Positions 41,162 through 59,163 of a stretch of DNA of 64,000 nucleotides are shown piece by piece. Position numbers and translations under genes: made by a program. Position 1 is the stretch's first letter; every line of letters begins with the position of its first letter. The notes below the pieces were generated by a model. The model did no database searches and was not told the origin of the DNA. It was given only the letters and a program-made list of their open reading frames with translations. The DNA comes from Fimbriimonadales bacterium (lineage in GTDB: Bacteria > Armatimonadota > Fimbriimonadia > Fimbriimonadales > JABRVX01), in assembly GCA_045862955.1 (NCBI GenBank), contig BTVI01000001.1, positions 32,001 to 96,000 on the forward strand, read 5' to 3'.

Positions 41162-42874
41162 ATGGTTACACGGCGGCGCTTGGGTGAAATACTGGTCGCG
41201 GCGGGCCGCATTACCGAGCCACAACTCAAAGCTGCGCTCGAGGAGTCGCGCAATTCCGGCCGGCGCCTAGGCGAGGTGCTCGTTGCGTCTCGGCTGATCG
41301 GTTTCGACGATCTGGGGCGCGCCATCGCCGAGCAGTTCGAGGTTCCTTACGAACCGATGTCCGACATCGCGCCCACTCCCGAAGTGCTCGAGTTGGTCCC
41401 GGCATGCACCGCATCGAACTTCCAAGTGTTCCCCCTCAAGCTCGATGCGCATGCGTTCTCTGTTGCGATGTGCAACCCGGACGACCTCGAGGCTCAGGAC
41501 TGGCTCCAAGCCCGAACCGGCAAGCCTCTGGATGTTCGTTATGCTCTGCCTGAGCGAGTGGAGCGAGCGATCTCCTTCTACTACGGGGTCGCGGGCGGCT
41601 GCCGCGAGGCCGGTGCAGAGGCGGAGGCGGCGCCTGTCGAAGACGAGCCTGACGGGTTCTCGGTCGAGAGTATGCGAAGGGCCGGTCAAGAGGCACCGGT
41701 CATCCGGCTCGTGAACGACATCCTGGCGGAGTGCGTGCAGGCCGGAGCTAGCGACATACACTTCGAGCCCCGGCGTACCGGGCTGGAAGTGCGGATGAGG
41801 GTGGACGGAGTGATGCGGCGGATGCGCCAGCTCCCCAAGTCGCTCCGGCCCGCGGTAATCTCCCGGCTGAAGCTAATGGCCGATATTGACATCACGGAAC
41901 GCAGGAAGGCGCAGGACGGCCGCATCTCCATTCGACTGAACCAACATCGCATAGATATCCGCGTCAACACCTTGCCAACCCGATGGGGTGAGAGAACGGT
42001 GCTCCGACTGCTTGACCAGGAGGCCGGCCCCCGTCCCCTCTCCGAGCTGGGCATGACTCCCGAGATAGAACAAGCCTTCCGAGCCGCGCTCACTCATCCG
42101 CACGGTCTTATTCTGGTCACGGGCCCCACCGGAAGCGGCAAGACGACTACGCTCTACTCCGCCCTCCGCGAGCTGAACGACGAGAGGATCAACATTCTAA
42201 CTTGCGAAGACCCCATCGAGTACGAGCTGGAGGGTGTCGGGCAGTCGCAGGTCAACGAGAAGGTGGGCCTGACCTTCTCGGCCCAGCTTCGGGCGGCGTT
42301 GCGCCAGGACCCCGACGTAGTTCTGGTCGGAGAGATTCGCGACCTCGAGACAGCCGAAGTCGCAGCTCGAGCCGCCATGACGGGTCACCTGGTGCTCTCG
42401 ACGCTGCACACCAATGACGCGCCGAGTGCCATCCCGCGCCTCATTGACATGGAAGTGCCGCCGTACCTAATCAACTCGGCACTGATCGCCGCAACGGCCC
42501 AACGCTTGCTGCGCCGCCTGTGTACCGAATGCCGGGTGCAACGAGCCGTCTCAGCGGAAGAGGCCGCAGAGCTGGGCCTGCCTCCCGGAGCGACGATCTG
42601 GGAAGCCAAGGGCTGCACTAGCTGCATGAACTCGGGCTATCGAGGGCGCATTGGCGTGCACGAGGTACTGACCATGAACGACGAAATCCGTGCGCTGACG
42701 CTTCGGCGTGCCTCGGGCACGGATATCCGCAACGCCGCGGTGCGGTCCGGGATGGTGACCATGCAGGACGACATCCGGCGCAAACTGATGGCCGGCGAGA
42801 CTTCTGCCGCCGAAGCCAGCCGCTTCCTTCTGGCGCACACGGCGGAGAGTGAGACCGAGGAACTGGCAGCGTAA
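41162..42874 (+). CDS. GspE/PilB family secretion/pilus assembly ATPase
   Basis: MshEN-like RLGEILV x2, ASDIHFEP, Walker A GPTGSGKT, LRQDPDVVLVGEIRD, STLHTND, tetra-Cys motif. Confidence 0.93.
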   Translation: MVTRRRLGEILVAAGRITEPQLKAALEESRNSGRRLGEVLVASRLIGFDDLGRAIAEQFEVPYEPMSDIAPTPEVLELVPACTASNFQVFPLKLDAHAFSVAMCNPDDLEAQDWLQARTGKPLDVRYALPERVERAISFYYGVAGGCREAGAEAEAAPVEDEPDGFSVESMRRAGQEAPVIRLVNDILAECVQAGASDIHFEPRRTGLEVRMRVDGVMRRMRQLPKSLRPAVISRLKLMADIDITERRKAQDGRISIRLNQHRIDIRVNTLPTRWGERTVLRLLDQEAGPRPLSELGMTPEIEQAFRAALTHPHGLILVTGPTGSGKTTTLYSALRELNDERINILTCEDPIEYELEGVGQSQVNEKVGLTFSAQLRAALRQDPDVVLVGEIRDLETAEVAARAAMTGHLVLSTLHTNDAPSAIPRLIDMEVPPYLINSALIAATAQRLLRRLCTECRVQRAVSAEEAAELGLPPGATIWEAKGCTSCMNSGYRGRIGVHEVLTMNDEIRALTLRRASGTDIRNAAVRSGMVTMQDDIRRKLMAGETSAAEASRFLLAHTAESETEELAA

Positions 42875-42973
42875 GACGTCAGCCTAGGGTCCCGGTTTTT
42901 CCGCAGCCCCCGGTTCTTGCGTTTCCCCCTTGGCGGTGGCTTGGCAGCGGGACTTGCTGTACAATTTGGAATC

Positions 42974-44230
42974 ATGATCGGTGCGGCGTTTCTCGTCTTC
43001 CTCGGGGTCTGCGCGCAAGTCAGCGTGCAGGACCAGGCGCTCCTCGACGAGCTCTCCTACAAGGCCTTCCGTTTCTTCTGGGAGCAGTCCAACCCCACGA
43101 CGGGGTTCACGAAGGACCGTGCCGCCAATCTGGCCGGGTCGGACTCTTACACGGTGTCCAGCATCGCCTCGACGGGCTTCGCGCTCGCCGCGAACGCGAT
43201 CGGCGTGGAACGCGGTTGGATCACCCGAAACCAGGGCCTCATGCGCACTCGCATCACACTACAGAACCTGAACAGTGTCGCGCCGCGAGTCAACGGATGG
43301 TTCTACCACTTCATCCACTGGCAGACAGGCGCCCGGATGTGGAGCAGCGAGGTGTCCTCGATCGACACGGCCATTCTCTTGGCCGGTGCGGTGATTGCCG
43401 AGCGGTACTTCAAGGATGCCAGCGTGACGAACGAGTTCAATGCGATGCTGGGCGCAGTGAATTGGCAGTGGATGTTGACGGACGGCGGCACGAAGCCCGG
43501 CTCCCTCACCTTCTGCCACGGCTGGACCCCCGAAGCCGGGTTCATCCCGTATCGCTGGGACAGCTATGCCGAGCACATGGTGCTGTACATTCTGGCCCTC
43601 GGGGCCTGGGAAGGGATGCCCAATGCCTCGTGGACGGCATTCTCGCGACCCGTGGTCACCTACTACGGCTACAAGTTGTTCGGGGGAGGACCGCTGTTTC
43701 TGCATCAGATGTCGCAGAGCTTCCTGGACTTCTCGCGCACTCGGGACGTACTGGGGCTGGATTATTGGACCAGCGGGAGAAACCACACGCTGGCGAATCG
43801 CCTGTACTGCATCAACAACCCGAAGGGATACGCTGGTTACGGGCCCAACTTCTGGGGGCTATCTGCGGGCGACACTCCAGACGGCTATAAAGCACTCGGC
43901 GCTCCGGGCTGGGGCGAGGACAACGGCACCGTCATCCCGACGTCGGCCATCGCCAGCATCATCTACACACCGGCCGAGAGCATGGCGGCCGCCGAGCACT
44001 TCCGCAACAACTACGCGAACGCGTACGGGCGCTACGGTTTCAGCAATGGCATCAATCCTTCGCGGTCGTGGGTGGGTCCGGATGTAATCGGAATCGATCT
44101 CGGCATGATGTTGCTGGCGTTGGAGAACTACCGCAGCGGTCTTCCCCACCGCCTCTTTCATTCGCATCCGGTGGTGGAGCGCGGGTTCAAGCGAGCGGGG
44201 TTCTGGCCCCGAAGTCAGGCGCTGGATTGA
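42974..44230 (+). CDS. GH144-like (DUF3131 / glucoamylase family) endo-beta-1,2-glucanase, paralogue A
   Basis: Signal peptide; FRFFWEQ..TGFTKDR, SIASTGF, GWFYHF, EVSSIDT, GPLFLHQ, WGLSA, GRYGF, IGIDLG. Confidence 0.82.
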   Translation: MIGAAFLVFLGVCAQVSVQDQALLDELSYKAFRFFWEQSNPTTGFTKDRAANLAGSDSYTVSSIASTGFALAANAIGVERGWITRNQGLMRTRITLQNLNSVAPRVNGWFYHFIHWQTGARMWSSEVSSIDTAILLAGAVIAERYFKDASVTNEFNAMLGAVNWQWMLTDGGTKPGSLTFCHGWTPEAGFIPYRWDSYAEHMVLYILALGAWEGMPNASWTAFSRPVVTYYGYKLFGGGPLFLHQMSQSFLDFSRTRDVLGLDYWTSGRNHTLANRLYCINNPKGYAGYGPNFWGLSAGDTPDGYKALGAPGWGEDNGTVIPTSAIASIIYTPAESMAAAEHFRNNYANAYGRYGFSNGINPSRSWVGPDVIGIDLGMMLLALENYRSGLPHRLFHSHPVVERGFKRAGFWPRSQALD

Positions 44231-44339
44231 GGCCGGCAGGGGCCGCAGGGCCGTCTTTCGGGCTACTGCCATGGTGCGGAGCCTGTTCAGCGAGTAGACT
44301 AGCGGGCGTGATTCCTTTTCGCTCTCGCGGGCCTCTCGG

Positions 44340-46733
44340 GTGAACAGCTTGACCGATTCCGTCCGACTGCTCCCAAATCGCTATGGCCACTTCGATCCCG
44401 AGACCTCGGAGTTCGTCATCACGGACGTGTTGACGCCTCGTCCCTGGGTCAACGTGCTGGCCAACGAGCGCTACGGCGCGGTGGTGAGCCAGGTCGGAGG
44501 CGGCTTCTCTTGGTTCGAGAACTGCCAGCTGTTCCGGTTGTCGCGTTGGGACCAGGACCTCTCGACCGACGCGATGGGTCGCTTCGTGTATGTTCAAGAC
44601 GCAGATAGGCCGGAGGCCATTTTCTCCACGACTTGGCAGCCTACTAGGCGGTCTCAGCCGGGCGAGAGGGTGCGGCACGGGCTCGGCTACACCGTGTACG
44701 AGCGTGAGCTCGACGGCCTGGCCACCTCGCAGACGGTCTTCGTGCCGGTGGACGCGCCATGCGAGGTCTGGTTGATAGAAGTGCAGAACCGCCGGGCCAC
44801 TCCCCGACGCGTACGGCTGACAACCTATCTCGAGTGGCACCTGGGCGGGGTTGCCGACTGGCACCGGGAGTTCCACCGGCTGTTCGTCGAGACGCGCGCT
44901 CACGGGAATACCCTCCTTGCGCGCAAGCACCCCGGGCTGCATCCCTACTCGCGCGAAGTCGCGGATGGGTCGGTCGGCGCGGTGTTGGCCATCGCCGGCG
45001 CGGGCGACGTGGAGTGGATTACGGACAAGCGCGCATTCTTGGGCAGACAGGGCGACCTGGCACGACCCCAGGCCCTTCTCGACCCGTCGCCCCTCGTTCC
45101 GTGCGAACGAGGGACGGGCCGATGGGATGACCCTGTCGGCTGCGGGAGCGTCACGTTCGAGCTGTCTCCGGATGAGAGCAAGCGAGTGGTAGTCGTCCTC
45201 GGCGCGGGCCACTCGGACGAAGCCAATCAAGGGATGGTACAGCGCTTCGATGCGGATGCCGCCCAGGAAGCCCTCGGTGACGTGAAAGCGCACTGGCGCT
45301 CGCTGTGCGCCGACGCGTCGGTGATCAGTCCAGAGCCTGCGCTGGACGTGTTGTGCAACGCGTGGCTTCCCTATCAGGCCATCGCCGGCCGGATGCTGGC
45401 GCGGTGCGGCTACTACCAGCAGAGCGGGGCGTACGGTTATCGAGATCAGCTGCAGGACAGCCTCCTCCACCTGCTTACCGAGCCGTCACGTTGTCTCGAG
45501 CAGATCCGGCTCCATGCGGAGGCGATGTACGAGGACGGCGGAGTTAGGCACTGGTGGCATCCGGGGACCGACATTTACACCGAGAGCCGGCACAGCGACG
45601 CCGCACTGTGGCTTCCGTTCGCCGTTCTCGCGTATCTGGACGAGTCGGGCGACACCAGAGCACTAGAGCAAGAACTGGCGTACCTCTCGAGAGACACGCA
45701 GTTGCACGGCAGCACGGGGTCTCTGCTCGAGCACTGCATGCGAGCACTGGACCGCGCCCTGGACCGGCTATCGCCACGCGGGCTGCCTCTGATCGAATCG
45801 GGTGACTGGAATGACGGCCTGAGCCATGCCGGGATCGAAGGTCGCGGGGAGTCCGTGTGGCTCGGGATGTTCCTCTTCGCCATCCTCGAACGCTGGAAGG
45901 GCTGGCTGGAGCGGCTGCGCCTCGGCGAAGTGGCGAAGCGCTACGCAGGCTGCGCCGAGTCGCTGCGGCGTGCGGTGAACGAGTGGGGATGGGACGAGGA
46001 CCGGTATGTGGGGGGGTATCGTGACGACGGCAAGCCCTTCGGTGCGAGAGAGTGTGCCGAGGGAAGCCTGTATCTCAACCCGCAGACGTGGGCGGTGATC
46101 AGTGGTATCGCACCGCCAGAACGGGCACAACGCGCTTTGCGAACCGTTCGGGAGCAGTTGCTCGAGCCCTATGGCGCGCTCTTGCTCCGGCCCGCTTACA
46201 CGGCGCTCGACCCGTACATCGGCTACATCACCCGCTACGCGCCTGGGCTGCGGGAGAACGGCGGGGTGTATTGCCATGCCGCCACGTGGGCGGTTCAAGC
46301 CTTCGCGATGATGGGAGACACGGATACTGCTCTCGCGGTGTACCGCTCACAGTGTCCGCCCCTGCGGTCGGGCGAAGCCCCAGACCGGTATGCAGCCGAG
46401 CCTTACGTGATGCCCGGCAACGTGGACGGCCCGGACTCGCCACACGAGGGCCGCGCCGGATGGACTTGGTACACGGGCTCGGCCGCCTGGATGAAACGTG
46501 TGGCCTTCGACTGGCTATGCGGGGTGCGAGCAGAGCCCGAGGGACTCCGCGTGCGGCCATACCTTCCCTCGAGTTGGGACGGTCTTCAGATCCGACGCCC
46601 GTTCCGTGGTGACGTTTTCGAGATCGAAGTGCGTCGGCCGCCGCAATACGGGGGGCCGGCGGATGGTCCGATTGCCGATCTGCTGGTCCAGTCGAGCGGG
46701 AGCGGGAAGACGCATTCGATTAGTCTTCCGTAG
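44340..46733 (+). CDS. GH94 glycoside phosphorylase
   Basis: TPRPWVNVLAN, RHGLGYT, YQQSGAYGYRDQLQD, GDWNDG, ENGGVYCHA, WTWYTGSAAW. Confidence 0.92.
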   Translation: MNSLTDSVRLLPNRYGHFDPETSEFVITDVLTPRPWVNVLANERYGAVVSQVGGGFSWFENCQLFRLSRWDQDLSTDAMGRFVYVQDADRPEAIFSTTWQPTRRSQPGERVRHGLGYTVYERELDGLATSQTVFVPVDAPCEVWLIEVQNRRATPRRVRLTTYLEWHLGGVADWHREFHRLFVETRAHGNTLLARKHPGLHPYSREVADGSVGAVLAIAGAGDVEWITDKRAFLGRQGDLARPQALLDPSPLVPCERGTGRWDDPVGCGSVTFELSPDESKRVVVVLGAGHSDEANQGMVQRFDADAAQEALGDVKAHWRSLCADASVISPEPALDVLCNAWLPYQAIAGRMLARCGYYQQSGAYGYRDQLQDSLLHLLTEPSRCLEQIRLHAEAMYEDGGVRHWWHPGTDIYTESRHSDAALWLPFAVLAYLDESGDTRALEQELAYLSRDTQLHGSTGSLLEHCMRALDRALDRLSPRGLPLIESGDWNDGLSHAGIEGRGESVWLGMFLFAILERWKGWLERLRLGEVAKRYAGCAESLRRAVNEWGWDEDRYVGGYRDDGKPFGARECAEGSLYLNPQTWAVISGIAPPERAQRALRTVREQLLEPYGALLLRPAYTALDPYIGYITRYAPGLRENGGVYCHAATWAVQAFAMMGDTDTALAVYRSQCPPLRSGEAPDRYAAEPYVMPGNVDGPDSPHEGRAGWTWYTGSAAWMKRVAFDWLCGVRAEPEGLRVRPYLPSSWDGLQIRRPFRGDVFEIEVRRPPQYGGPADGPIADLLVQSSGSGKTHSISLP

Positions 46734-46751
46734 CGCGCCGCGTTCGCTCTC

Positions 46752-46946
46752 TCAGTTGCCCTGGCCGGATGAAGAGGTACCTTGCGGGGCGGTGCCACCG
46801 CCCGGAATCGCGGGCTCGCCGATGCCTAGCTGCTCGGGTGTACTGCCGCCGTCTCGAAAGAAGAGGGCCCAAGCGACGACCGCCAAGACGATCACCACGA
46901 TACCGATAACGACGCCTGCCACGCGTCCTGAGACCTGCATGTTCAT
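46752..46946 (-). CDS. Small single-TM protein (64 aa)
   Basis: GAGAGG-like RBS; one hydrophobic helix and a G/P/S-rich tail; own promoter motif and operator upstream. Confidence 0.72.
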   Translation of the reverse strand: MNMQVSGRVAGVVIGIVVIVLAVVAWALFFRDGGSTPEQLGIGEPAIPGGGTAPQGTSSSGQGN

Positions 46947-46960
46947 CCTCTCACCGCCTT

Positions 46961-46976
46961 GCTGAAACGGTTATGC
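46961..46976. promoter_or_regulatory. LacI-type operator O1
   Basis: gctgaaacggttatgc; matches O2 and O3; lies just downstream of the SigH-like -10 of the small TM gene. Confidence 0.55.
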
Positions 46977-46982
46977 AGCCGA

Positions 46983-47009
46983 TTCGCTGGTGCCCCCGCA
47001 CCCTCCTGC
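46983..47009 (-). promoter_or_regulatory. SigH-like promoter of the small TM gene
   Basis: GCAGGA-N17-CGAA. Confidence 0.55.
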
Positions 47010-47081
47010 TGAAAAAGGTAATTTACGATACCCGATTTACCAGGTAAAAAGACCTGATTACGCCCCAGATGCTCTCTGAGT

Positions 47082-47130
47082 GTGCCAATCCGGGCGTAGT
47101 GTGTTACACTACTAGGTGAAAGGTTTCAGC
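47082..47130 (+). promoter_or_regulatory. sigma70 promoter of the lacI operon and operator O2
   Basis: GTGCCA-N17-TACACT (47105-47110) with extended TG, then near-palindrome ggtgaaaggtttcagc (47115-47130). Confidence 0.65.
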
Positions 47131-47134
47131 AACG

Positions 47135-48163
47135 GTGTCGAAACGCAAGACCATCGAAGACGTGGCGCGCCTGGCCGGGGTGAGCAAGGTCACCGTAAGC
47201 TATGTGCTGAACGGGCGAGCGGCACAGGCGAGGATCAGTGACGACACGGAAGTCCGGGTGCTCGCTGCAGCGCGAGACCTGGGCTACCGCCCGAACGCGC
47301 TCGCCAAGATGCTTCTGAGGCAAAGGACGGACTCTTTGGCCGTGGCGTTTCAGTATGCGACCTTCTTCTCGGCCTGGTCGAGCTTTACGTCGGAAGTAAT
47401 GCGTGGCGTGTGCGACGCGTGCGTGCAGGCCGGCATGGATTTGCTGTTACACACTCGCGGAACCGAAGGCAGCAGTGCCGACGCCGACACGCTATCGGAC
47501 GGCCGAGTGGACGGAGCCCTGATTCTGCGTGATGCCGACGACCCTACCCTTCTCGAGCTGATCCGGCGCAAGTTCCCTTGCGTGCTGTTCTTCACGCGTT
47601 CCAGTGATGCCGAAGTGCCGTTCGTGGATGCCGACAACTACGCGGGTGGCCGCATGGCAACGCAGCACCTGCTGAAGCTCGGCCACCGGCGCATCGGCAT
47701 GATTCGAGGCTCAGCGAGTTCCATCAGTTCGAACGACCGTTTCAACGGGTATCGCGACGCGCTGGAGATGGCCAAGATGGAAGTCGACCCTTCCTTGGTC
47801 CTAACACTCGAAACGCCGAGCGCCGATCCGACGGCTTTCATGGACCTAATGATGAGAGAAGACCGCCCGACCGCGCTCTTCGTGTGGTCGGACGACGTGG
47901 CGTTCGCCCTGTTGCGACGGCTCTCGGAGCTCGGGCTCTCGGTGCCCGATGACGTGTCGATCGTTGGCTTCGACAGCACGGAGGCCTGCGAGCGCGTGTC
48001 CCCCCCGTTGACGAGCGTGCGACAGCCCATTGTCGAGATGGCACGCGAGGCGACGCTGCTGTTGGTGTCTCTAGTTCGCCAGGAACCGGTTTCCCGAACC
48101 CAGATCATCTACCCGCCGTCTCTAGACGTGCGGCAGTCCACCGCGCCACCGAAGGCGCGGTAG
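47135..48163 (+). CDS. LacI family transcriptional regulator
   Basis: TIEDVARLAGVSKVTVSYVLN, LGYRPNALA, VPDDVSIVGFD, PPLTSVRQP. Confidence 0.97.
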   Translation: MSKRKTIEDVARLAGVSKVTVSYVLNGRAAQARISDDTEVRVLAAARDLGYRPNALAKMLLRQRTDSLAVAFQYATFFSAWSSFTSEVMRGVCDACVQAGMDLLLHTRGTEGSSADADTLSDGRVDGALILRDADDPTLLELIRRKFPCVLFFTRSSDAEVPFVDADNYAGGRMATQHLLKLGHRRIGMIRGSASSISSNDRFNGYRDALEMAKMEVDPSLVLTLETPSADPTAFMDLMMREDRPTALFVWSDDVAFALLRRLSELGLSVPDDVSIVGFDSTEACERVSPPLTSVRQPIVEMAREATLLLVSLVRQEPVSRTQIIYPPSLDVRQSTAPPKAR

Positions 48164-48182
48164 CTCAGTACGGAGGTTACAT

Positions 48183-48929
48183 ATGAGGCGAGTACGTCTT
48201 GCGTTTACCTTGATCGAGCTACTCGTAGTCATCGCAATCATTGCCATCCTAGCGGGAATCCTCTTCCCGGTCTTTGCGCGTGCGCGCACGTCGGCACAGA
48301 TCACTACCGCTCTCTCCAATATGAAGCAGATCGGGATCGGCGTGCACCTCTACACGGAGAACTATGACGGCGTGCTGTTCAAGATTCGCCACGAGAACGG
48401 GCGGAAGAGCTGGAAGCACGCCATCCAGCCGTACCTAAAGAACGCCGACGTGTTCCGAGACCCTATCAATCCTGCTGCCAAATTGCCGGACGAGCAGGCA
48501 GCGCAGACCAACCCGTTCAAGCCAACCTTCGTACGTGGGTACTTCTACTACCGACCGTTCTTCAAGACTGGTAACTGGCAAGACCTGGCCAATTACACCA
48601 TGCGATCGGTACACGAACCAGCTAGGGCACTGCTCATTGCCGAAAACAAGGACGTGTACCCTGACTACGGGCCGTGGATGCAGTACCTATACAACGGTCA
48701 GAACGGATGGAAGATCCCGAACTGGGGTGGTTTCAAATTCGAGGACAAGAGGATGGTAGTGATCTTCATGGACACTCACGCGAAGATCACTGGCCTTCGA
48801 GAAACCTGCCTTCCGGACGACGGCGAGAACATGTGGCAGTACACTCGTGGCAAGTACGTTTATCCGATAGACGGGAACGACACGAACATGCCCTGGCTCG
48901 ACACGTTCTGCTCGACGTTGCCTTTCTAG
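48183..48929 (+). CDS. Prepilin-type N-terminal cleavage/methylation protein (DUF1559-like)
   Basis: AFTLIELLVVIAIIAILAGILFPVFARAR, SNMKQIG; C-terminal VIFMDTHAK, a variant of the H-X9-DG motif. Confidence 0.9.
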   Translation: MRRVRLAFTLIELLVVIAIIAILAGILFPVFARARTSAQITTALSNMKQIGIGVHLYTENYDGVLFKIRHENGRKSWKHAIQPYLKNADVFRDPINPAAKLPDEQAAQTNPFKPTFVRGYFYYRPFFKTGNWQDLANYTMRSVHEPARALLIAENKDVYPDYGPWMQYLYNGQNGWKIPNWGGFKFEDKRMVVIFMDTHAKITGLRETCLPDDGENMWQYTRGKYVYPIDGNDTNMPWLDTFCSTLPF

Positions 48930-50306: not shown

Positions 50307-50382
50307 GGTGCACTCCGATGTCATGACTCCCTCGTGCACTCGACAGGCACATTGCTACCAGGCTCGCCACGATTCCGACGCC

Positions 50383-50863
50383 GCCATGCTGAGTTTGTCG
50401 AGGATGGCCGACTACCCGGTTCGACCCGGCTCCGTCATGCCGAGCCTGTCAGGGGCATACCACCACCCGAATCGTTGCAGGTCCGACGCAGCCGTGCCGA
50501 GGTCATCGAAGCCCAGTTGCAGCCCAACCCGCTCCGACACCGTCATGCTGAGCCTGTCGGTGGCATGTCACCACCCGAATCGTTGCAGGCTCGATGCAGC
50601 CGTGCAGAGATCATCGAAGCCCAGTCGCAGCCCAGCCCGCTCCGACACCGCCATGCCGAGCCTGTCAGGGGCATACCACCACCCGAATCGTTGCAGGTCC
50701 GACGCAGCCGTGCCGAGATCATCGAAGCCCAGTCGCAGCCCAACCCGCTCCGACACCGTCATGCTGAGCCTGTCGAAGCATGCGGACACCTGCCGCACCC
50801 TATCTCCGTCGTGCCGATTGGTCGCGGCTAGGGATGTCATGCTTCGACAGGCTCAGCATGACG
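50383..50863. repeat. REP/REPIN-like array: five direct and one inverted copy of GTCATGCTGAGCCTGTCGAAGCAT, within 108-nt tandem units
   Basis: Copies start at 50383, 50434, 50542, 50650 and 50758 (108-nt period from 50434); perfect 26-bp inverted repeat 50757-50782 / 50838-50863. Confidence 0.88.
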
Positions 50864-50867
50864 GGTT

Positions 50868-50942
50868 GATACCGGAGCCTCCGATGACTCGGATACCGGA
50901 ACCTCCGATGACTCGGATACCGGAGCCTCCGATGACTTGGAT
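50868..50942 (+). repeat. 24-nt tandem repeat x3
   Basis: gataccgga[g/a]cctccgatgact[c/t]g x3; each copy contains an in-frame ATG (50884, 50908, 50932). Confidence 0.9.
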
Positions 50943-53352
50943 GGTTGGCTGTCCCTACGTGGCCCTACTCCTCAAGCTCCTCGTGCTCGTTGTCATGCTG
51001 CTCGTTGCCTGCGCAGTTGCAGCGGAAGACGTGCATCTGAGGTTCGTCGTGTTCGACGGCGACCAGGGCTTGCGTGTGCTGCGCGAGGTCGTGCGCGAGT
51101 TCGAGAAGGTCCATCCCGGAATCAAGGTCAGCTTGGAAAACGTACCCTACGGCTCGTACTTCCAGAAGCTGTTAGCGCAGTATGCGGCCAACGTTGCGCC
51201 GGACGTCGCCATGATGGACTTCGTCAGTTTCCAGAAGCTGGCACGACGCAAGGCCATTCTCCCGCTCAACCAATTCTTCGAACAGACACCCGGGTTCGAT
51301 ATCAACGAGTACTACCGGCCCATCGTACAGGCGCATTCATTGGGTGGTCAGCTATACGTATTGCCTCGCGACATAGCACCCATCGGACTAATCTATTACA
51401 ACAAGAAGATCTTCGACGAAGCGGGGCTACCGTACCCGGATGGAAGCTGGACTTGGGACTTCGAGCCTCGACCGCACCTCCGCGAGAAGTGCTTCACCTG
51501 GACCATGCAGTACCTCACGAAGCGCGACGCGCAGGGACGGATCGTGCACTGGGGCTTCACGCCCGGATGGATGACTGCGTTCGCCGACTTATGCACCTTC
51601 TCGACGGGCGCGCGATATGCAGATGACAACGAGTCGGTTCGACGGGTGCTCTACGACGATCCGAGGGTAATACGCGCATACCAATTCGTTGCCGACTGCG
51701 CGCTGAAGCATCACTGGATGCCTACGCCGACCGAGATCACGTCAGTTATGCAATCCAACGCCTCGCAGCTATTCCTCAGCGGCAAAGTCGCGATGTTTCA
51801 GTCCGGCATCTGGGAGGTGCCTCGGTTCCGGGAGGTATTGCGCCCTGGGGCGGAGGGCTTCTTCGAGTGGGATATCACGCTAGCACCAGCCTTCAAGGAT
51901 GGCACGCGCGCGGCGCCTACCGGCGGATCGGGTTATTCGATCATGTCATCCACGAGGCACCCGAGAGAGGCCTGGTTGCTTACCAAGTGGATGGCAGGAG
52001 AACCGGGCATGGTAGCGATGGCACGAGCCGGTCTCGCTCAACCTGCTATCCGGAGGCTGGCCATCCGCGAGCCGTGGATTCCGGGACCTAACACTCCAGT
52101 CGAACAACGATACCCAGCGAACCGCATCGTCACCGACCAGGCAGTACCCTACGTCGTGTTTCCACCCACCTCGGATAAGTGGCCGGAAGTAAGCAGCTAC
52201 GTTGCGAGCGAGATCGAGCGCATTTTCAATGGAACCTCTACTGCAGAAGAGGCGCTTCGCCGCGGCACCGCACGAGCACAAGCGAGACTAGACACCCTCT
52301 TGAAGGAGGAGCGCCTGCCCAAGTTCGACTGGTGGCTGGGAGGTGCCCTATGCACGGGACTGCTCGCCGCCGCCGTCGGCTGGGTGTATTGGCCAGAGCG
52401 AGGACGTCGGCTTACACGAAGAGAGAAGGCCGACAACCGCGCTGGCTACCTACTTATCAGTCCGTGGATCATCGGCATGATAGTGTTTACTGCAGGCCCG
52501 ATGGTGCTCTCCCTGCTTATGAGTCTGTCCGACTGGGATATTATCCAACCTGCGAAGTGGCGAGGTGTGCAGAACTATGTCGAGGCTTTCGGTGAGGATC
52601 CGCGCTTCTGGATCACGCTGAGGGTTTCCGCGGTCTACACGCTGGTATCGGTTCCCCTCGGTATCATCGGGGCGCTGATGCTCGCGTTGCTGCTGAACAC
52701 CAAGGTCCGTGGTATGCCAATCTACCGCACCTGCTTCTACCTTCCCGCGCTGGCGAGTACGGTTGCGTCGGCCCTCATCTGGCGCCGCATCTTCCAGCCC
52801 GAGGGGGGACTGCTGAATCTGCTCATCTACGGCGCGGACGGCAAAGGCAACTTTCTCGGGCTTGCCACCTTGCTCTCACCGTTCTCCACCGATGGTCAGC
52901 CCGTCAACTGGCTCGGCAACGAGCACCTGGCGCTCCCCGCACTCATCATCATGTCACTGTGGGGAGTAGGTGGTGGAATGGTCATCCTGCTAGCCGGCTT
53001 GCAAGGCATTCCGGAGTTCTACTATGAGGCGGCGACGCTGGATGGTGCTGGCTGGTGGGCACGGTTTCGCGCAATCACCCTACCGCTCCTAAGCCCTTCC
53101 CTATTCTTCACTCTGGTAACGGGTGTGATCGGTAGCTTTCAGGTGTTTACGCAGGCATTCGTCATGACCGGTGGAGGTCCGAACGACGCGACGCGCTTCT
53201 ACATGTTGCACCTCTACGAGCAGGCTTTCGGCTCGCTGCGCATGGGATACGCCTCCGCCCTCGCATGGGTGCTCTTCGTAGTAATCCTGGGCTTCACCCT
53301 GCTGCAGTTCCAGCTCAACCGAATCGTGTACTACGAGGCGGGCGGACGATGA
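50932..53352 (+). CDS. Sugar ABC transporter substrate-binding protein fused to a permease (CUT1 family)
   Basis: Signal-like region; SBP_bac_1-like motifs (FEKVHPGIKV, APDV, YYNKKIFD); permease GYLLISPW, WLG, LAGLQGIP..YEAATLDGA. Start is uncertain; the ORF-track start 50227 runs through the repeats. Confidence 0.88.
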   Translation: MTWMVGCPYVALLLKLLVLVVMLLVACAVAAEDVHLRFVVFDGDQGLRVLREVVREFEKVHPGIKVSLENVPYGSYFQKLLAQYAANVAPDVAMMDFVSFQKLARRKAILPLNQFFEQTPGFDINEYYRPIVQAHSLGGQLYVLPRDIAPIGLIYYNKKIFDEAGLPYPDGSWTWDFEPRPHLREKCFTWTMQYLTKRDAQGRIVHWGFTPGWMTAFADLCTFSTGARYADDNESVRRVLYDDPRVIRAYQFVADCALKHHWMPTPTEITSVMQSNASQLFLSGKVAMFQSGIWEVPRFREVLRPGAEGFFEWDITLAPAFKDGTRAAPTGGSGYSIMSSTRHPREAWLLTKWMAGEPGMVAMARAGLAQPAIRRLAIREPWIPGPNTPVEQRYPANRIVTDQAVPYVVFPPTSDKWPEVSSYVASEIERIFNGTSTAEEALRRGTARAQARLDTLLKEERLPKFDWWLGGALCTGLLAAAVGWVYWPERGRRLTRREKADNRAGYLLISPWIIGMIVFTAGPMVLSLLMSLSDWDIIQPAKWRGVQNYVEAFGEDPRFWITLRVSAVYTLVSVPLGIIGALMLALLLNTKVRGMPIYRTCFYLPALASTVASALIWRRIFQPEGGLLNLLIYGADGKGNFLGLATLLSPFSTDGQPVNWLGNEHLALPALIIMSLWGVGGGMVILLAGLQGIPEFYYEAATLDGAGWWARFRAITLPLLSPSLFFTLVTGVIGSFQVFTQAFVMTGGGPNDATRFYMLHLYEQAFGSLRMGYASALAWVLFVVILGFTLLQFQLNRIVYYEAGGR

Positions 53353-54209
53353 GCCGACGAGGACACGACCCAATGCTGCTGATCCCGCACCTGGGCAAGT
53401 TCTTGGTGCTCGGGCTGTTGGTGGTGGGGTCATTGGTGTTCCTCACGCCGTTCTACATCTCGGTAACCATGTCGCTCAAGTCCGCTGCCGAAGTAGCACA
53501 GACGTCGGTGTGGTCGCTGCCTAAATCGGTGACTCTGGAAAACTACCGCGAGGTGTTAGCCAACCCGAATGTCAGCTTCCTGCTCTTCTTTCGAAATACG
53601 GTAGTGATCGCTGGGTTCTCCACGTTGGGAGTGGTGCTCAGCTCTAGCATGGTAGCCTACGCATTTGCTAGGGTGCAATTTCGAGGGCGCGACAGGCTCT
53701 TCATCGTACTGCTGAGCACGATGATGCTGCCCGGCATTGTGACGATGATCCCTACTTACGTGCTGTACAAGTATCTGCACTGGGTGAATACCTTCTATCC
53801 CCTCACGGTACCTGCTTTCTTGGGTGGAGGGGCGTTCAACGTGTTCCTTCTGCGGCAGTTCTTCTTGAGCGTGCCGGTCGAGTTGGACGAAGCGGCGAAG
53901 CTAGATGGAGCCTCGCACTGGACGATCCTTACTCGCATAATCATGCCGCTGTCTGGTCCTGCGCTTGCCACGGTGGGTGTGTTCACGTTCATCGGTAGTT
54001 GGCGCGACTTTATGGGACCGCTCATCTACCTGAACGATGTGAACAAACAGACGCTGGAGCTCGGCCTTAGTACCTACGCCTCGCTCCGAGCGGAGCAGTG
54101 GCATCTGTTAATGGCAGGTAGTGTACTCGTAACGATCCCGCTCATCATCATCTTCCTGATCGGCCAACGATACTTCGTCAAGGGGATCGTGATGAGCGGC
54201 ATGAAATAG
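53349..54209 (+). CDS. Carbohydrate ABC transporter permease
   Basis: AYAFAR..FRGRD, FLLRQFF..ELDEAAKLDGA, QRYFVKGI; ATGA overlap with the upstream gene. Confidence 0.95.
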   Translation: MSRRGHDPMLLIPHLGKFLVLGLLVVGSLVFLTPFYISVTMSLKSAAEVAQTSVWSLPKSVTLENYREVLANPNVSFLLFFRNTVVIAGFSTLGVVLSSSMVAYAFARVQFRGRDRLFIVLLSTMMLPGIVTMIPTYVLYKYLHWVNTFYPLTVPAFLGGGAFNVFLLRQFFLSVPVELDEAAKLDGASHWTILTRIIMPLSGPALATVGVFTFIGSWRDFMGPLIYLNDVNKQTLELGLSTYASLRAEQWHLLMAGSVLVTIPLIIIFLIGQRYFVKGIVMSGMK

Positions 54210-54217
54210 GTGCTGTC

Positions 54218-57200
54218 ATGATCGCATTCGTTGTCGCACTCTCGCTCAGTGCCGTATCCCAGGAAACAGCTCGGCTAGACGACTTCGAAGATCTATCGTC
54301 CTGGAGGCCTATCACCTCCGAGGGAGTGGTGCTTCGCCTATCCCAGGCGGAAGGGAGGACCGGCAAGGCGCTTCGCATGGAGTACGACTTTCAGGGCCGG
54401 GGCGGATTCGTGATTGCCGAGAAGCGTATCTCCCTGCCCCTACCCGAGAACTACGAGTTCAGCTTCTGGATACGGGGAAAGTCGCCGGTCAACAACCTGG
54501 AGTTCAAGCTAGGCGATGAGAGCGGCGAGAACGTGTGGTGGAACAACCAGATCGGCTACGAGTTCCCCAGCGAGTGGACGCAGGTGCGGCTACGGAAGCG
54601 ACACATCCGCTTCGCATGGGGGCCTCGAGGTGGAGGGGACTTGCAGAAAGCTGTCACCCTGCAGTTCGTAGTTGCCGCATACACCGGCGGCAAGGGGGAG
54701 GTACTCTTCGACGACCTTCGGTTTCGCGAGCTTCCACCTGTTAGGAGTTACTCCGGTGTGCCTGCGGTGTCTGCGTCGAGCGAGGTGCGCGGCTTCCCGG
54801 CTCGCAACGTGACTAGTGGGGATCGCGGTTGGCGTTCTACTACCACGGGCGAACAATGGATAGCGCTCGACTTCGGCCAGCAGCGTGAGTTCGGCGGTCT
54901 CGTGCTGCGATGGGATGAACAGAGGTATCCCACCCGATTCCGCATCGAGGGCTCTGATGATGGACGGTCTTGGAGCACACTGGAGGAGGTGGCGCAAGCG
55001 GCGGGTGGAACGACCTACCACTATCTGCCCGACTCGGAGGCACGACACCTTCGCATCGTGATGCATGACGGGCCCGGTGGTTGCTACCACCTGAATGCCC
55101 TGGAAGTGAAGGATTTGTCCTTCGGTGACGGGCACAACGCCTTCTTCAGAGCGATTGCCAAGGATCACCCACTCGGTTGGTTTCCGCGAACGACGCGTGG
55201 GGAGGCAGGGTATTGGACGGTGGTAGGCGCTGCAGGCGGGCAACGCGAGGCACTAATCAGCGAGGATGGTGCAGTCGAGCTGGACAAACGCAGCCTCTCG
55301 CTGGAACCGATGCTGTATGCAGACGGCAGGCTATGGACGTGGGCCGATGGGCAGACCACCCAAGGACTAGACGGTGACACCCTACCCCTGCCCTTCGTGA
55401 CACGAAGCCACGGGTCATTCGAGCTTCGAGTGACACCGTTCATGACCGAAGATGATTCGGAGACCCTTTGCGTTACCTATGAGATCGCAAACCGAAGCCC
55501 AGATACGCGAACATGCACGCTCTACGTCGCATTGCGACCGTTTCAGGTGAATCCACCATACCAGATGCTGAACACGATAGGTGGGGTGACACCGATTCGC
55601 CGCCTGTCACTCTCGCGCGATCAGGCACTCATCAACGACTCGGTTCGGCTGGAATCCGTCCCACCGGCCACGCGCGTCGGCGCCGCCCCGTTTCATGTGG
55701 GTGATATCACCAAGTACCTGGCGCAGAACTCCCTGCCCGACCGCGACGATTTGACGGACAGCTTCGGGTTTGCATCGGGAGCCTTCGCTTACGACCTGCA
55801 ACTTCGGCCCTGGGAGCGCATGAGCGTCACGCTGGTCTCGCCACACTCCGACAAACCGACGGCGCTTCGTACTCAGAGAGATCTAGACATCCAGCGCATG
55901 AGGGCTCGCGGTGTGTGGCGTGCGAAGGAGGCTGGCGCAGCCGTCTCACTGCCAACGGCCGTAAGAGACTATGAGCGGCTGCTGAAGGCCAACATAGCGT
56001 ACATACTCGTGAATCGGGACGGACCGGGCATCCAGCCCGGCTCGCGCTCCTATGAGCGCTCTTGGATGCGCGACGGCGCGCTAACATCGGCTGCACTCTT
56101 ACGGTGGGGATGCACCGAGGAGGTCCGGCAGTTCATCGAGTGGTTCGCATCGTACATCCCGCCAAACGGCGCGGTGCCCTGCGTGGTGGACCGCCGCGGT
56201 GCCGACCCGGTGCCGGAGCACGATAGCCACGGGCAGTTCCTGTACATCGTGGCCGAGTACTACCGATTCACGAAAGACCACGAGTTCTTGGAGCGCATAT
56301 ACCCCACCGTGTGTAAGGTGGTGGATCACATCCGCACGCTGCGCGCGAAGCGCATGACGTCGGAGTATCAGACCGAGGAAAAGCGTGCCTACTATGGGCT
56401 GATACCCGAGTCGATTAGCCACGAAGGATACTCCGCCAAGCCCATGCACTCCTACTGGGACTGCTTCTTCATCGCCAGGGGCCTGCGCGACGTGGTCGAG
56501 ATTGCACGCGCTCTCGGAAAGAACGACGAGGCGGATGACTTTGCAGCCCTCGCCGCCGACTTCAGTCGAAGTCTTCGAAACTCGCTGGATCTAACCATCG
56601 AGAAGCACGGCATAGACTTCGTGCCGGGGTGTGTAGAGCTCGGTGACTTCGATCCTACGTCCACTGCCATCGGTGTATTCCCGTGTGCAGTAACGGACTG
56701 TGTGCCGGCAGAAGCCCTCGAGCGCACCTTCGACCGGTACATGGAGTTCCACCGGGACCGTGCGTCGGGCCGCAAGCCGTGGGACGTCTACACCCCCTAC
56801 GAAATCCGGATCGCGAGCGCCCTACTTCTGATGGGTCGGCGGGACCAGGCGCACGAGATACTCGGCTTCTTCCGAACGCACGTTCGGCCACCAGGCTGGC
56901 TCCACTGGGCCGAAGTAGTGCGGCGCGATCCGCGGAAGCCTGGCTTCATCGGCGACATTCCCCACACTTGGGTCGGGTCGGAGTTCGTCAAGTTCGTGCG
57001 CAACGTGCTGGTGTACGAGGACGACGACCGCGGCGCTCTGGTTCTGGGTGCGGGCATCCTGGCGGCTTGGTTCCAGGACGGAGAGTGCATAAAGGTGGCA
57101 GGATTGCCGACTCACTTCGGTAAGGTCTCCTACGAGGTTGCTGCCGAGGACGACGTCATCGTGTTCTCGGTGCGCCAAGCCCCCGCAGCCCCTGGCGGCA

Positions 57201-57322
57201 TCGTCGTCAGAAGTCCGTACGAGCGCACGGCCCGAGCGACGGTGAATGGGCTGCCCGTCGAGCTACTCGACAACGGCGTAACCATCGAGGGCCCCGCCGA
57301 AGTGCGATTCTGGCCCCGCTAG
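54218..57322 (+). CDS. Secreted multidomain protein: CBM-like + discoidin (F5/8C) + (alpha/alpha)6 glycosidase-like domain
   Basis: Signal peptide; CIA30/CBM11-like N-domain; WRS..QWIALDFG..SDDGRSW discoidin; QPGSRSYERSWMRDG, SISHEGY..HSYWD, GDIPHTW. Confidence 0.8.
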   Translation: MIAFVVALSLSAVSQETARLDDFEDLSSWRPITSEGVVLRLSQAEGRTGKALRMEYDFQGRGGFVIAEKRISLPLPENYEFSFWIRGKSPVNNLEFKLGDESGENVWWNNQIGYEFPSEWTQVRLRKRHIRFAWGPRGGGDLQKAVTLQFVVAAYTGGKGEVLFDDLRFRELPPVRSYSGVPAVSASSEVRGFPARNVTSGDRGWRSTTTGEQWIALDFGQQREFGGLVLRWDEQRYPTRFRIEGSDDGRSWSTLEEVAQAAGGTTYHYLPDSEARHLRIVMHDGPGGCYHLNALEVKDLSFGDGHNAFFRAIAKDHPLGWFPRTTRGEAGYWTVVGAAGGQREALISEDGAVELDKRSLSLEPMLYADGRLWTWADGQTTQGLDGDTLPLPFVTRSHGSFELRVTPFMTEDDSETLCVTYEIANRSPDTRTCTLYVALRPFQVNPPYQMLNTIGGVTPIRRLSLSRDQALINDSVRLESVPPATRVGAAPFHVGDITKYLAQNSLPDRDDLTDSFGFASGAFAYDLQLRPWERMSVTLVSPHSDKPTALRTQRDLDIQRMRARGVWRAKEAGAAVSLPTAVRDYERLLKANIAYILVNRDGPGIQPGSRSYERSWMRDGALTSAALLRWGCTEEVRQFIEWFASYIPPNGAVPCVVDRRGADPVPEHDSHGQFLYIVAEYYRFTKDHEFLERIYPTVCKVVDHIRTLRAKRMTSEYQTEEKRAYYGLIPESISHEGYSAKPMHSYWDCFFIARGLRDVVEIARALGKNDEADDFAALAADFSRSLRNSLDLTIEKHGIDFVPGCVELGDFDPTSTAIGVFPCAVTDCVPAEALERTFDRYMEFHRDRASGRKPWDVYTPYEIRIASALLLMGRRDQAHEILGFFRTHVRPPGWLHWAEVVRRDPRKPGFIGDIPHTWVGSEFVKFVRNVLVYEDDDRGALVLGAGILAAWFQDGECIKVAGLPTHFGKVSYEVAAEDDVIVFSVRQAPAAPGGIVVRSPYERTARATVNGLPVELLDNGVTIEGPAEVRFWPR

Positions 57323-57364
57323 CACGTTTTTGGGAGGATTCTCGACGATATCGGCGTTCAGCAC

Positions 57365-57420
57365 TTGCCGTTCAGCGGAACATGTGTTATCATAATCCTG
57401 CGTTGCTGAAAGCATTCAGC
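57365..57420 (+). promoter_or_regulatory. sigma70 promoter and LacI-type operator O3
   Basis: TTGCCG (57365-57370)-N17-TATCAT (57388-57393) with extended TG; near-palindrome gctgaaagcattcagc (57405-57420). Confidence 0.7.
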
Positions 57421-57450
57421 AAGCCAATCTAGACGTGGAGCGAGAGGACG

Positions 57451-59163
57451 ATGATGTCACGCACTCTGGGCGCCCTGGCCCTTGCCGCGCTGAGCGCCAC
57501 TTTGGCCAACGCCCAATTCTCGTCGATCAAAGTTATCGAAAGGGTTTGGAACGATAACCCCAGCTCCGTGCTGACGGTCACGAACAACTACCCCGTGAGC
57601 GTTCAGTTCGCGGAGACCGGGCTCAACAACGGCATCAACCGCCATCTATGGTACTTCTCTGGGGATGGCGGAGCAACGGAAGCGACTTTCAACAACACGG
57701 ATTACTGGCATGTCGCCATGGACGTGAAGATTGACCCGACCCCGAGCGGCACTCCTCGTCAGGAAGCCGGCATTTATTTCAACTACAACGGCTGGGACGG
57801 CGTGATGATGGTCGCGTCCGACGGCGAGGTTGCTTGCTTCGGGTACATCCTGCCATTCTGGTCCGTCCCGAACGGCTACACAGCCGGCACGACCATTCGT
57901 ATCGGCATCCGATACTTCTACGATCCCGTCGAGGGAAAGAACAAGTTCGAGTATTACGCCGGCAACAATCGCGTGATCCTCACACCGGGCAACCTGGAGC
58001 AGGGAATCATCAACGGCACCAAGATCGGTGCGTACATTCAGCACCAGGGCTCGGCATCGAACCCGCGCGACGTGACGACCACCATGAGCCACATCGTCGC
58101 GGGCATGGACGACGTCGACTTCGCTTCGGTGCGGATCATTCCTCGGGTCTTTAACGACAATCCGCTCTCGAATCTAACGATTACTGACCAGTACCCGAGC
58201 TACCTCGAGTTCCTGGAGACTGGGCTCAACGTGTGGATCAACCGCCACGTGTGGTACTTCTCTCCGGACGGTGGCGCCACCGACTCGTCCTTCGACAACA
58301 ACGAGTACTGGAACATCGCGATGGACGTCACGATAGATCGCCTGCAGGGCTCGGTCCATCGGCAGGAAGCAGGCATGTACTTCAACTACAATGGCTGGGA
58401 CGGCCAGTTCATGGTAGCGTCCGATGGCGAGGTGGCGGTCTTCGGCTATATGTTGCCATTCCACACTTTCGGCAACATCTACACGGCCGGTGACACGATC
58501 ACCATCGGCATGCGTTACTTCTACGATCCGACGGACGGGTTGCGCAAGCTCGAGTACTATGCCGGCGATCAGGTAGTCGTCAAGGTCCCCGACAACGCCG
58601 AGCAGGGACTGCTCGACGGCACCAAGATTGGCGGCTACGTGCAGCACTGGGGATCGTCGAGTGACCCGACCGATACGATGACAACGATTAGTCACATCAC
58701 TGGCGTGAAGCTGGAGGCAGCGCCGCCGGTCGCTACGCTAGAAGGAACCGTGAACCTCGACCTGTTCGTGGGCGATCCTGCCACGCAGTCTGCGAACCTA
58801 GAGCTTCGCTCGCCGGGAACGCAGACTGTCTTGTACAGCTACCCAATCACCCTGTCCGGCTTCAGCGGTTACCTCGTTCCGAATGTCGCGACAGGAACCT
58901 TCGATATCGCACTGAAGTTCCCGCACTTCCTGCGGTCGGTTGCGACCAACGTGGTGTTGGGTCCCGGCGCGAACTACCAGGACTTTAATGTCACCAACGG
59001 CGACGCGTTCCCCGACAACTCGGTGGGGCTGCAAGACCTGAATGCTGTGCTCATCAACTTCGGTGGCGCGGATGCGCTCTCGGACCTGGACGGAGACGGT
59101 ACGGTCGCCATCGGTGATCTGAATATCATCCTGATTAACTTCGGCAAGGTAGGCGACCTGTAG
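57451..59163 (+). CDS. Secreted protein with two ~200-aa repeated beta domains and a C-terminal dockerin-like (double EF-hand) module
   Basis: Signal peptide ending ANA-Q; repeats start at 57517 and 58120; C-terminal NGD..DNSVGLQDLN..FG / DLDGDGTVAIGDLN..FG. Confidence 0.85.
   Translation: MMSRTLGALALAALSATLANAQFSSIKVIERVWNDNPSSVLTVTNNYPVSVQFAETGLNNGINRHLWYFSGDGGATEATFNNTDYWHVAMDVKIDPTPSGTPRQEAGIYFNYNGWDGVMMVASDGEVACFGYILPFWSVPNGYTAGTTIRIGIRYFYDPVEGKNKFEYYAGNNRVILTPGNLEQGIINGTKIGAYIQHQGSASNPRDVTTTMSHIVAGMDDVDFASVRIIPRVFNDNPLSNLTITDQYPSYLEFLETGLNVWINRHVWYFSPDGGATDSSFDNNEYWNIAMDVTIDRLQGSVHRQEAGMYFNYNGWDGQFMVASDGEVAVFGYMLPFHTFGNIYTAGDTITIGMRYFYDPTDGLRKLEYYAGDQVVVKVPDNAEQGLLDGTKIGGYVQHWGSSSDPTDTMTTISHITGVKLEAAPPVATLEGTVNLDLFVGDPATQSANLELRSPGTQTVLYSYPITLSGFSGYLVPNVATGTFDIALKFPHFLRSVATNVVLGPGANYQDFNVTNGDAFPDNSVGLQDLNAVLINFGGADALSDLDGDGTVAIGDLNIILINFGKVGDL

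Follow-up and report, generated by a model that had tools for sequence, protein, structure and literature searches.

Among the closest described systems to the one reported here are the beta-1,2-glucan gene clusters built around glycoside hydrolase family 144 (GH144; CpSGL, XcSGL/XCC2207), GH94 and the solute-binding proteins of ABC transporters. We examined a locus at positions 41162-59163 of a 64,000-nucleotide window (positions 32,001 to 96,000 of contig BTVI01000001.1, GenBank assembly GCA_045862955.1, from a Fimbriimonadales bacterium of the Armatimonadota, put in class Fimbriimonadia by the labels of homologues), which has in common with these clusters the residues of the SGL clan (PMC12102758), a GH94 enzyme, a CUT1 ATP-binding cassette (ABC) transporter and a LacI regulator. 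It differs from them in that no TonB-dependent receptor is present, and in containing a type IV pilin-like protein (hereafter the pilin), a small transmembrane (TM) protein, its likely partner, and a tandem domain not described before. Moreover, the substrate-binding protein (SBP) of the transporter is fused to a permease, and the GH94 enzyme appears to be of the type that forms the C-terminal part of cyclic beta-1,2-glucan synthase (Cgs), unlike 5h3z. The locus is close to certain to be a beta-1,2-glucan regulon, in which the pilin very likely has a role. For that role we propose, with our confidence evenly divided, a LacI-controlled scavenging of beta-1,2-glucan in which the pilin takes the capture role of SusC/D and imports glucan on a retractable filament by means of shared machinery.

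Filaments that handle sugars have been described elsewhere. The subunits of the Sulfolobus solfataricus bindosome are reportedly ABC binding proteins by fold, and are said to have a dedicated assembly system. This archaeal structure (Bas), which operates without an outer membrane, is a near precedent (PMC4471445). At our locus the head is instead pilin-like, dedicated assembly genes are not conserved, and sugar binding is suggested by linkage and conservation. Akkermansia and the Akkermansiaceae offer a diderm case in which pilin-like proteins are connected with the utilisation of glycans; there, MUL2 is one conserved pilus-biogenesis locus for which attachment is proposed (PMC13174399). Unlike MUL2, the present case would involve dozens of paralogous pilins distributed among substrate-specific regulons, with a separate partner for each clade. 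In Streptococcus sanguinis, the accessible passages of PMC9934059 describe PilC, a glycan-binding minor pilin stabilised by its partner PilA, as our pilin may be by its own; PilC differs in that it is an adhesin of a monoderm and bears a grafted lectin module, that its partner is itself a pilin, and that it lies outside a catabolic regulon. Lastly, the DUF1559 (SBP_bac_10, PF07596) and H-X9-DG (TIGR04294) proteins share with the pilin an N-methyl motif, an alpha1 helix, a C-terminal 'F.D.H.K' hairpin, genome-wide expansion and flanking genes for small membrane or signal-peptide proteins, and are described, in the passages of PMC8567305 that were available, as an expanded family without assigned function. 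Unlike that family at large, the clade described here goes with a single sugar. A literature search covering titles and abstract openings, with most subscription papers outside its scope, returned no report that links DUF1559 or prepilins with GH144, or with the import of glycans, in these phyla.

The source genome (G000) was compared with 40 relatives (41 genomes in all), comprising its own family (f1, including the same-genus relative G001) and other groups such as f2 and f4, and with a wider set of 251 Armatimonadota genomes. A core of four genes is conserved: the LacI-family repressor (47135..48163, + strand; PF00356 and PF13377), a small membrane protein, the pilin (48183..48929, +) and GH144. 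At a threshold of E<=1e-30, a pilin orthologue was found in 17/40 relatives and PF10091, the family of the GH144 enzymes, in 18/40. All 17 pilin carriers have PF10091, and 22 relatives lack both. lacI lies upstream of the pilin in every carrier (17/17), and GH144 follows directly or one gene downstream in 15/17; in G002 the distance is 7.7 kb, and in G026 GH144 lies on a separate contig. The eighteenth relative with PF10091, G022, has lacI-GH144 with no pilin beside it, and a more distant pilin occurs at another place in its genome, behind an operator-like site. At L066:6998-10430 of G022, two operator-like sites precede a tryptophan-halogenase-like gene, which is followed by a related pilin and a lipoprotein. 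Across the phylum the pilin clade is present in at least 42/251 genomes, a lower bound since 10 candidates were scored per genome, with PF10091 immediately downstream in 39, at 4.3 kb in one and unlinked in two. This adjacency (39/42) spans six families at 40-67% identity. In a head-domain tree of 31 GH144-locus pilins and 25 paralogues from the source genome, 24 GH144-adjacent pilins form one group (support 97/96) that excludes the 25 paralogues, four more lie beside it, and those of G153/G145 and G195 fall apart from it. The initial annotation had proposed, as a check, to see whether lacI, the pilin, the small TM gene and GH144/GH94 recur together in Armatimonadota. They do for the core, whose co-occurrence was not lost, but not for GH94, which is present in only 4/41 genomes.

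Linkage was also found in a second phylum. PF10091 occurs in 18/121 genomes of the order Phycisphaerales, and 20 regions cover 22 of its 23 matches (one contig-edge match was left out). A prepilin gene is present in 15 of these 20 regions, where approximately 23% would be expected per 20 kb from pilin density (263 pilins in 20.4 Mb of five genomes); no p-value is claimed because the genomes are related. The tandem domain is present in 12/20. The Phycisphaerales pilins are family-level relatives (65-86 bits) and lie outside the Armatimonadota clade. These data bear on whether the pilin is simply a passenger, one of an abundant class of genes that came to lie near GH144 by chance and was co-inherited with it. 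Genomes with some 45-70 pilin-like genes each, which are moreover related to one another, would make such neighbours easy to come by. We nonetheless consider this explanation barely credible and already largely refuted by the adjacency in 39/42 genomes across six divergent families, by the joint absence in 22/40 relatives, by the pairing in at least one more lineage and in a second phylum, and by an operator that remains shared after the two genes have separated (see below).

The pilin itself carries a class III signal, with a short basic leader ending in Ala at position -1, followed by 21 hydrophobic residues and Glu5. Position -1 is Ala in 93 and Gly in 27 of 120 orthologues, in which the signal and the alpha1 helix are near-invariant. 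Prepilin leaders are stated to end in Gly or Ala in the available part of PMC9934059, and invariably in Gly in that of PMC4471445. The initial annotation had called the protein DUF1559 prepilin-like. The pilin-type N-terminus bears this out and 3/3 tested orthologues pass PF07596, as paralogues pass models of the PF07596/TIGR04294 type, but the window protein passes only N-methyl models and falls below the cut-offs for PF07596 and TIGR04294. Its neighbours in the Atlas are DUF1559 clusters (TM-score 0.75-0.77). It is thus DUF1559-related and not a formal member. A structural model built from 120 sequences (predicted local distance difference test (pLDDT) 94.7, compared with 44 for a 13-sequence version) has a lollipop fold, with an alpha1 helix (residues 10-60) bearing an alpha/beta head. 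Head residues kept in at least 90% of orthologues are W77, Y84, D103, R118, Y120, W132, E154, K156, D161, W181, D197, H199, W218, Y220 and W238, together with the Cys pair C209/C243. An aromatic and polar make-up is usual for sugar sites, which the conserved head may resemble, and on linkage and conservation the pilin likely binds beta-1,2-glucan. In G029, pilin and GH144 share a single frame of 623 aa. We rejected this as a fusion, because the end of the pilin and approximately 100 GH144 residues are missing and the contig is 2.8 kb long, and treat it as a deletion or misassembly.

The probable beta-1,2-glucan specificity proposed in the initial annotation was strengthened by the enzymes. GH144 A (42974..44230, +; PF10091 E 5e-63) and GH144 B (48954..50306, +; PF10091 E 2e-63) both find their best match in XcSGL (8xul, E 6e-58 and E 1.5e-61 respectively), with 5gzh, 5gzk and 5z06 as further solved relatives. 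The SGL clan is defined by residues corresponding to E239, F286 and Y367 of XcSGL, and E142 is the base candidate in CpSGL, according to the accessible text of PMC12102758. Both window proteins retain E126, E200, F242 and Y305 and so have the clan residues as defined there; the Tyr was placed in GH144 B by direct alignment and in GH144 A through the shared motif, and E126 is the base candidate by its aligned motif, not by CpSGL numbering. Two PF10091 copies occur only in G000 and G001 among the 41 genomes, and GH144 A is likely a genus-level duplicate. The GH94 enzyme (44340..46733, +; PF17167 and PF06165) best matches, among PDB entries, Cgs residues ~2029-2787 (E 2e-123), with cellobiose phosphorylase behind (E 6e-97), and is distant from 5h3z (E 1e-6). 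Its likely identity is that of a beta-1,2-oligoglucan phosphorylase resembling the C-terminal part of Cgs. The genome carries one GH94 gene and two PF10091 genes, so no synthase of its own is seen and the glucan would be external. Many other Armatimonadota families have PF10091 frames of 2000-3500 aa, likely cyclic beta-1,2-glucan synthases, of which G000 has none. Read from sequence, both GH144 enzymes start with hydrophobic signal-like segments, as does the six-hairpin enzyme, and GH94 does not. The six-hairpin enzyme (54218..57322, +; CBM-like (carbohydrate-binding module-like), F5/8 type C and six-hairpin regions, secreted-type) has a catalytic part for which no solved relative was found. 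GH144 is present at 5/11 loci of its homologues in several other phyla (two of the 11 are short contigs), and the enzyme belongs to an uncharacterised family that occurs with beta-1,2-glucan loci across several phyla. At one locus with a six-hairpin homologue, in Eisenbacteria (L082), a TonB receptor is present and a pilin is not.

Three palindromes in the window resemble LacI operators, and they precede the small protein gene (46959..46978, 20.6 bits), the lacI-pilin operon, just 5′ of the lacI start (47113..47132, 26.6 bits), and the surface protein gene (57403..57422, 28.6 bits). Scored with a matrix of 15 sites from other genomes, they rank third, second and first genome-wide, the next site reaching 17.4 bits, but this ranking is partly circular because the training sites were chosen by their likeness to the window palindrome, which tells against it as support for the regulon. 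Independent of that choice is the position of the sites just before the cassette in 7/7 f2 loci. Operator-like sites are also present in 2/2 f1 loci, and those at 46959 and 47113 recur in G001 and G002. The initial annotation had placed the whole span under LacI. Predicted sites are indeed shared by the small protein gene, the lacI-pilin operon and the surface protein gene, but the scan gave nothing 5′ of pilB or GH144 A and only 7.9 bits 5′ of GH94. GH94-containing units do carry an operator-like site in G002, G194 and G223, and in G194 the pilin unit and the GH144-GH94 unit are separated with a site on both. From the predicted site before its start, LacI likely autoregulates the lacI-pilin-GH144 B-ABC operon.

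The source genome has two strong LacI genes, both directly before a pilin. The second cluster (G000:C6:40069-50715; L035:4070-14716) contains a tailed secreted protein, LacI, a PF07596 pilin, a small TM protein, a 577-aa protein of no known kind, a CUT1 ABC transporter, a GH42 beta-galactosidase and a GDSL esterase, and is likely another sugar-specific pilin module. Elsewhere, a thiamine pyrophosphate (TPP) riboswitch precedes two pilins that flank a PF09819 transporter subunit (G000:C33:18765-21103; L109), and at G000:C4:79971-82254 two secreted proteins, of which one has a His/Asp-rich N-terminus, are followed by a pilin, which may be a counterpart for the uptake of metal.

The small protein encoded at 46752..46946 (- strand) is 64 aa long with a single TM segment, a motif (T/S)PxQ/ExGxGxPxxPG and a Pro/Gly tail. 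Its gene is kept in 2/2 f1 and 8/8 f4 loci and in further families, where one copy carries the same motif on a lipoprotein-type anchor; f2 loci have a different small lipoprotein 5′ of lacI (called in 6/7). By our own gene calls and our own rule, a small single-anchor P/G-rich gene adjoins 12/47 pilins of the source genome, compared with 4/883 for other genes in that size range. When pilin and partner were co-folded, the score was 0.54 (best control 0.02), which is rated weak support; the runs agreed on at least 74% of contacts and the partner had a pLDDT of at least 65. The mark was reached by 116/157 solved and 2/215 mismatched pairs, and at or below 0.60 there were 18 solved pairs and both mismatches. 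Packing between the membrane helices could explain the score. The 64-aa protein is nevertheless likely, on gene linkage and modelling, the cognate partner of the pilin.

With such a partner, the pilin might instead stay anchored in the inner membrane and bind beta-1,2-oligoglucan as a periplasmic SBP or sensor feeding GH144 or the ABC transporter, an unrecognised outer-membrane channel admitting the sugar. Linkage, regulation and partner would be explained equally well. The Armatimonadota loci share no conserved filament gene, most cassette carriers have no SBP there, and Tuwongella proteins of this kind fractionate unlike plain pilins (available passages of PMC8567305). Yet a plain anchor would not call for so nearly invariant a signal and alpha1 helix, a dedicated SBP is already present in the G000 operon, and the outer-membrane step is left unexplained. 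On balance we consider an anchored pilin of this sort unlikely.

The last gene of the locus encodes a signal-peptide surface protein (57451..59163, +) with two ~200-aa repeats (57517-58104 and 58105-58725) that are 61% identical. Searches of this tandem domain found no convincing Pfam family and no PDB sequence match; its Atlas feature matches (DUF6645 and PelX_N, 0.93-0.95) are leads only. Within the phylum it occurs in 19/251 genomes, all 19 with PF10091, for which the base rate is 117/251. It is found with dockerin-like or PEP-CTERM-like tails, is fused to a PF10091 enzyme in G047 and shares a frame with one in G062, and a weak search for longer and fused forms gave no more than four tandem proteins. 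The varied tails and the fusion to a PF10091 enzyme point to a binding module, and the domain is an undescribed candidate for beta-1,2-glucan binding. As to the tail, the 'dockerin-tagged' label of the initial annotation did not stand: NF041540 scored 17.4 against a 29-bit cut-off and PF00404 gave no match (cohesins were not searched). Approximately 60 frames of the source genome match the surface protein, apparently through an immunoglobulin (Ig) and dockerin-like C-terminal tail, and within that genome the domain is found only here, which makes the tail a general genome-wide tag, possibly for lineage-specific sorting.

These frames would need an export route, which leads to a further possibility, that the pilin is the cargo adaptor of a type II-like pseudopilus exporting or displaying the co-regulated GH144 or the tailed protein, so that glucan would be cleaved outside the cell and small sugars would diffuse in. 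Its most constant neighbour is indeed a signal-peptide enzyme (39/42), and two Phycisphaerales beta-1,2-glucan loci (L099:2012-9153 and L097:11064-17986) adjoin a GspE/GspF/PilN-like assembly cluster that abuts lacI. The similar pilins found next to a transporter subunit and preceded by a TPP riboswitch, in contrast, fit the capture of small ligands better, the aromatic and polar residues conserved in the head resemble those of sugar sites, and no sugar porin was found. A role in export is thus, in our estimation, quite improbable.

In the genome at large (3.36 Mb, 97.6% complete), BamA and three secretins support a diderm envelope. The TonB receptor family PF00593 has no match anywhere in it, nor in the 2 f1 and 7 f2 cassette carriers (control: 3/14 genomes matched), so the absence noted in the initial annotation for the window extends genome-wide and no receptor elsewhere in the genome explains uptake. 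A SusC/D-type locus is likewise not seen, on the absence of PF00593, SusD not having been searched separately. OprB and LamB were found in 0/21 genomes. The genome does encode 5 PilB-type ATPases, 4 PilC/GspF, 5 PilT/PilU over the cut-off, the 3 secretins and one prepilin peptidase, with type IV filament genes on contigs C3, C4, C5 and C11, an unusually rich set for a 3.4-Mb genome. One of the ATPases, a PilB/GspE type with an MshEN c-di-GMP motif (41162..42874, +; PF00437 E 6e-129, NF053729), immediately precedes GH144 A and had been taken as part of the module. A PilB adjoins the cassette in only 1/17 relatives (of the same genus), 0/40 further Armatimonadota regions and 2/20 Phycisphaerales regions, and no PilC lies beside the window pilB, so that the linked assembly ATPase and platform of a bindosome-like system are not found here. 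We rejected PilB as a dedicated motor on this synteny and its missing operator, with the caveat of the two Phycisphaerales loci beside an assembly cluster, and the adjacent pilB is probably incidental.

Since full type IV pilus machinery is present, the pilin could also be a glucan-specific adhesin on an ordinary pilus, attaching the cell to glucan producers or a biofilm matrix with no part in import. The attachment proposed for Akkermansiaceae MUL2 (PMC13174399) and the lectin-bearing minor pilin that serves adhesion in S. sanguinis (accessible part of PMC9934059) are in keeping with this. An adhesin would leave the missing receptor slot unfilled and would not explain a paralogue controlled by a vitamin riboswitch. 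Beta-1,2-glucans, moreover, are mostly soluble. We regard adhesion as a very unlikely role.

Import on a filament, the reading that we prefer, would proceed as follows. Sophoro-oligosaccharides would release LacI from its three sites, inducing the small protein, the lacI-pilin-GH144 B-ABC-six-hairpin operon and the surface protein, whose tandem domain would hold glucan at the envelope. The single prepilin peptidase would cleave the pilin, which, as a minor or tip subunit of a retractable filament, would bring glucan through the secretin, the small protein serving to store or chaperone the pilin in the inner membrane. Periplasmic GH144 enzymes would then cut the chains, the SBP-permease ABC transporter, with MalK supplied from elsewhere, would import short oligomers, and GH94 would phosphorolyse these in the cytoplasm. 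The paralogous pilins of the genome, approximately 45 (47 by our own gene calls), would be interchangeable receptors for other nutrients.

Several observations weigh against this model. The relatives are phylogenetically related and are not independent samples. Of 24 Armatimonadota GH144 regions picked without a listed clade member, 11 have some pilin within ~8 kb and 13 have none, and 5/20 Phycisphaerales regions also lack one, which indicates that GH144 can work without a neighbouring pilin. GH94 is missing in 15/17 cassette carriers, and among the relatives ABC genes lie at the locus only in the source genome's own family and are absent from most loci; being so restricted, both are accessories. 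No operator-like site was found at f4 loci (0/8), the tandem domain was not found in f2 (0/27), and 12/12 f4 relatives have one or two TonB-receptor frames of 390-680 aa, with or without the cassette. Most paralogous pilins of the source genome have no adjacent sugar gene or regulator, with 1 riboswitch in 20 upstream regions. Finally, although the best fold matches of the pilin model among 48,161 chains are type IV pilins, they are weak, PilA4 (Z 5.4, root mean square deviation (rmsd) 3.2 over 115), an enterotoxigenic Escherichia coli (ETEC) T4b pilin (Z 5.2, rmsd 4.2 over 135) and EpsG (Z 4.7, rmsd 2.9 over 90) all falling below the usual trust mark, and Foldseek against the PDB returned nothing at E<=0.001.

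Every gene that the initial annotation listed at 41162-59163 is present, in the order given. Those not yet placed encode the transporter. The CUT1 SBP and permease share a single frame (50932..53352, +, the start being approximate within 50932-50995; PF01547 E 5e-33 and PF00528), as they do in G001 and G002, and a second, MalG-like CUT1 permease follows (53349..54209, +; PF00528), its ATG overlapping the preceding stop. No ABC ATPase gene is found at the locus; two MalK-type genes lie elsewhere in the genome. A cluster of repetitive extragenic palindromic (REP)-like repeats with a 24-nt triple repeat occupies 50374..50942, 5′ of the SBP gene and outside the protein that it encodes. We rejected a 1041-aa version of the SBP gene product, because the 5′ portion of the long open reading frame (ORF) runs over these repeats. 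Counted on both strands with <=3 mismatches, the 25-base REP-like unit gives 814 matches across the genome, and it is a source of falsely extended ORFs. A sigma70-like promoter match precedes the surface protein gene (57365..57393, +), the match count being within chance, as were the numbers from promoter and terminator scans of the window. An Rfam search of the window gave no matches. RNA-library contigs from three runs of one study include near-exact matches to pieces of the small protein, lacI, pilin, six-hairpin and surface protein genes; they are not counted as evidence of expression because contigs cannot show level or strand, or exclude DNA.

Two further genes of the window deserve mention. 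MurC and D-Ala-D-Ala ligase are encoded in a single reading frame at 18911-21487, within a division and cell-wall cluster. The gene at the window end (63317-64000, continuing to G000:C1:97254) had been read as an outer-membrane barrel, which was not confirmed: no barrel family matched, and the 645-aa product has an N-terminal Ig-like domain (invasin-D3/Big_1) and a C-terminal part without a known family.

Few proteins of Planctomycetota and Armatimonadota are as expanded as the DUF1559-type pilins, and the pairing described here offers this large protein family a specific substrate to test. The locus names one pilin clade, one sugar, a partner, a regulator with its sites, and residues to mutate; with the cassette present in a family that homologue names label Fimbriimonadaceae, the question can be put to a direct test. 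Two candidates also emerge in their own right, a ~200-aa domain not described before that may bind glucan, and a six-hairpin family, as yet uncharacterised, that goes with beta-1,2-glucan loci. More broadly, and tentatively, at rather less than even confidence, we suggest that Armatimonadota and Planctomycetota may import nutrients across the outer membrane through a library of interchangeable, substrate-specific pilins on a retractable filament passing through a secretin, in replacement of TonB receptors, and that this locus would be the beta-1,2-glucan version, equipped with a cognate membrane partner and a new glucan-binding surface domain. The finding thereby bears on how polysaccharides are taken up by diderms that have few or no TonB receptors.

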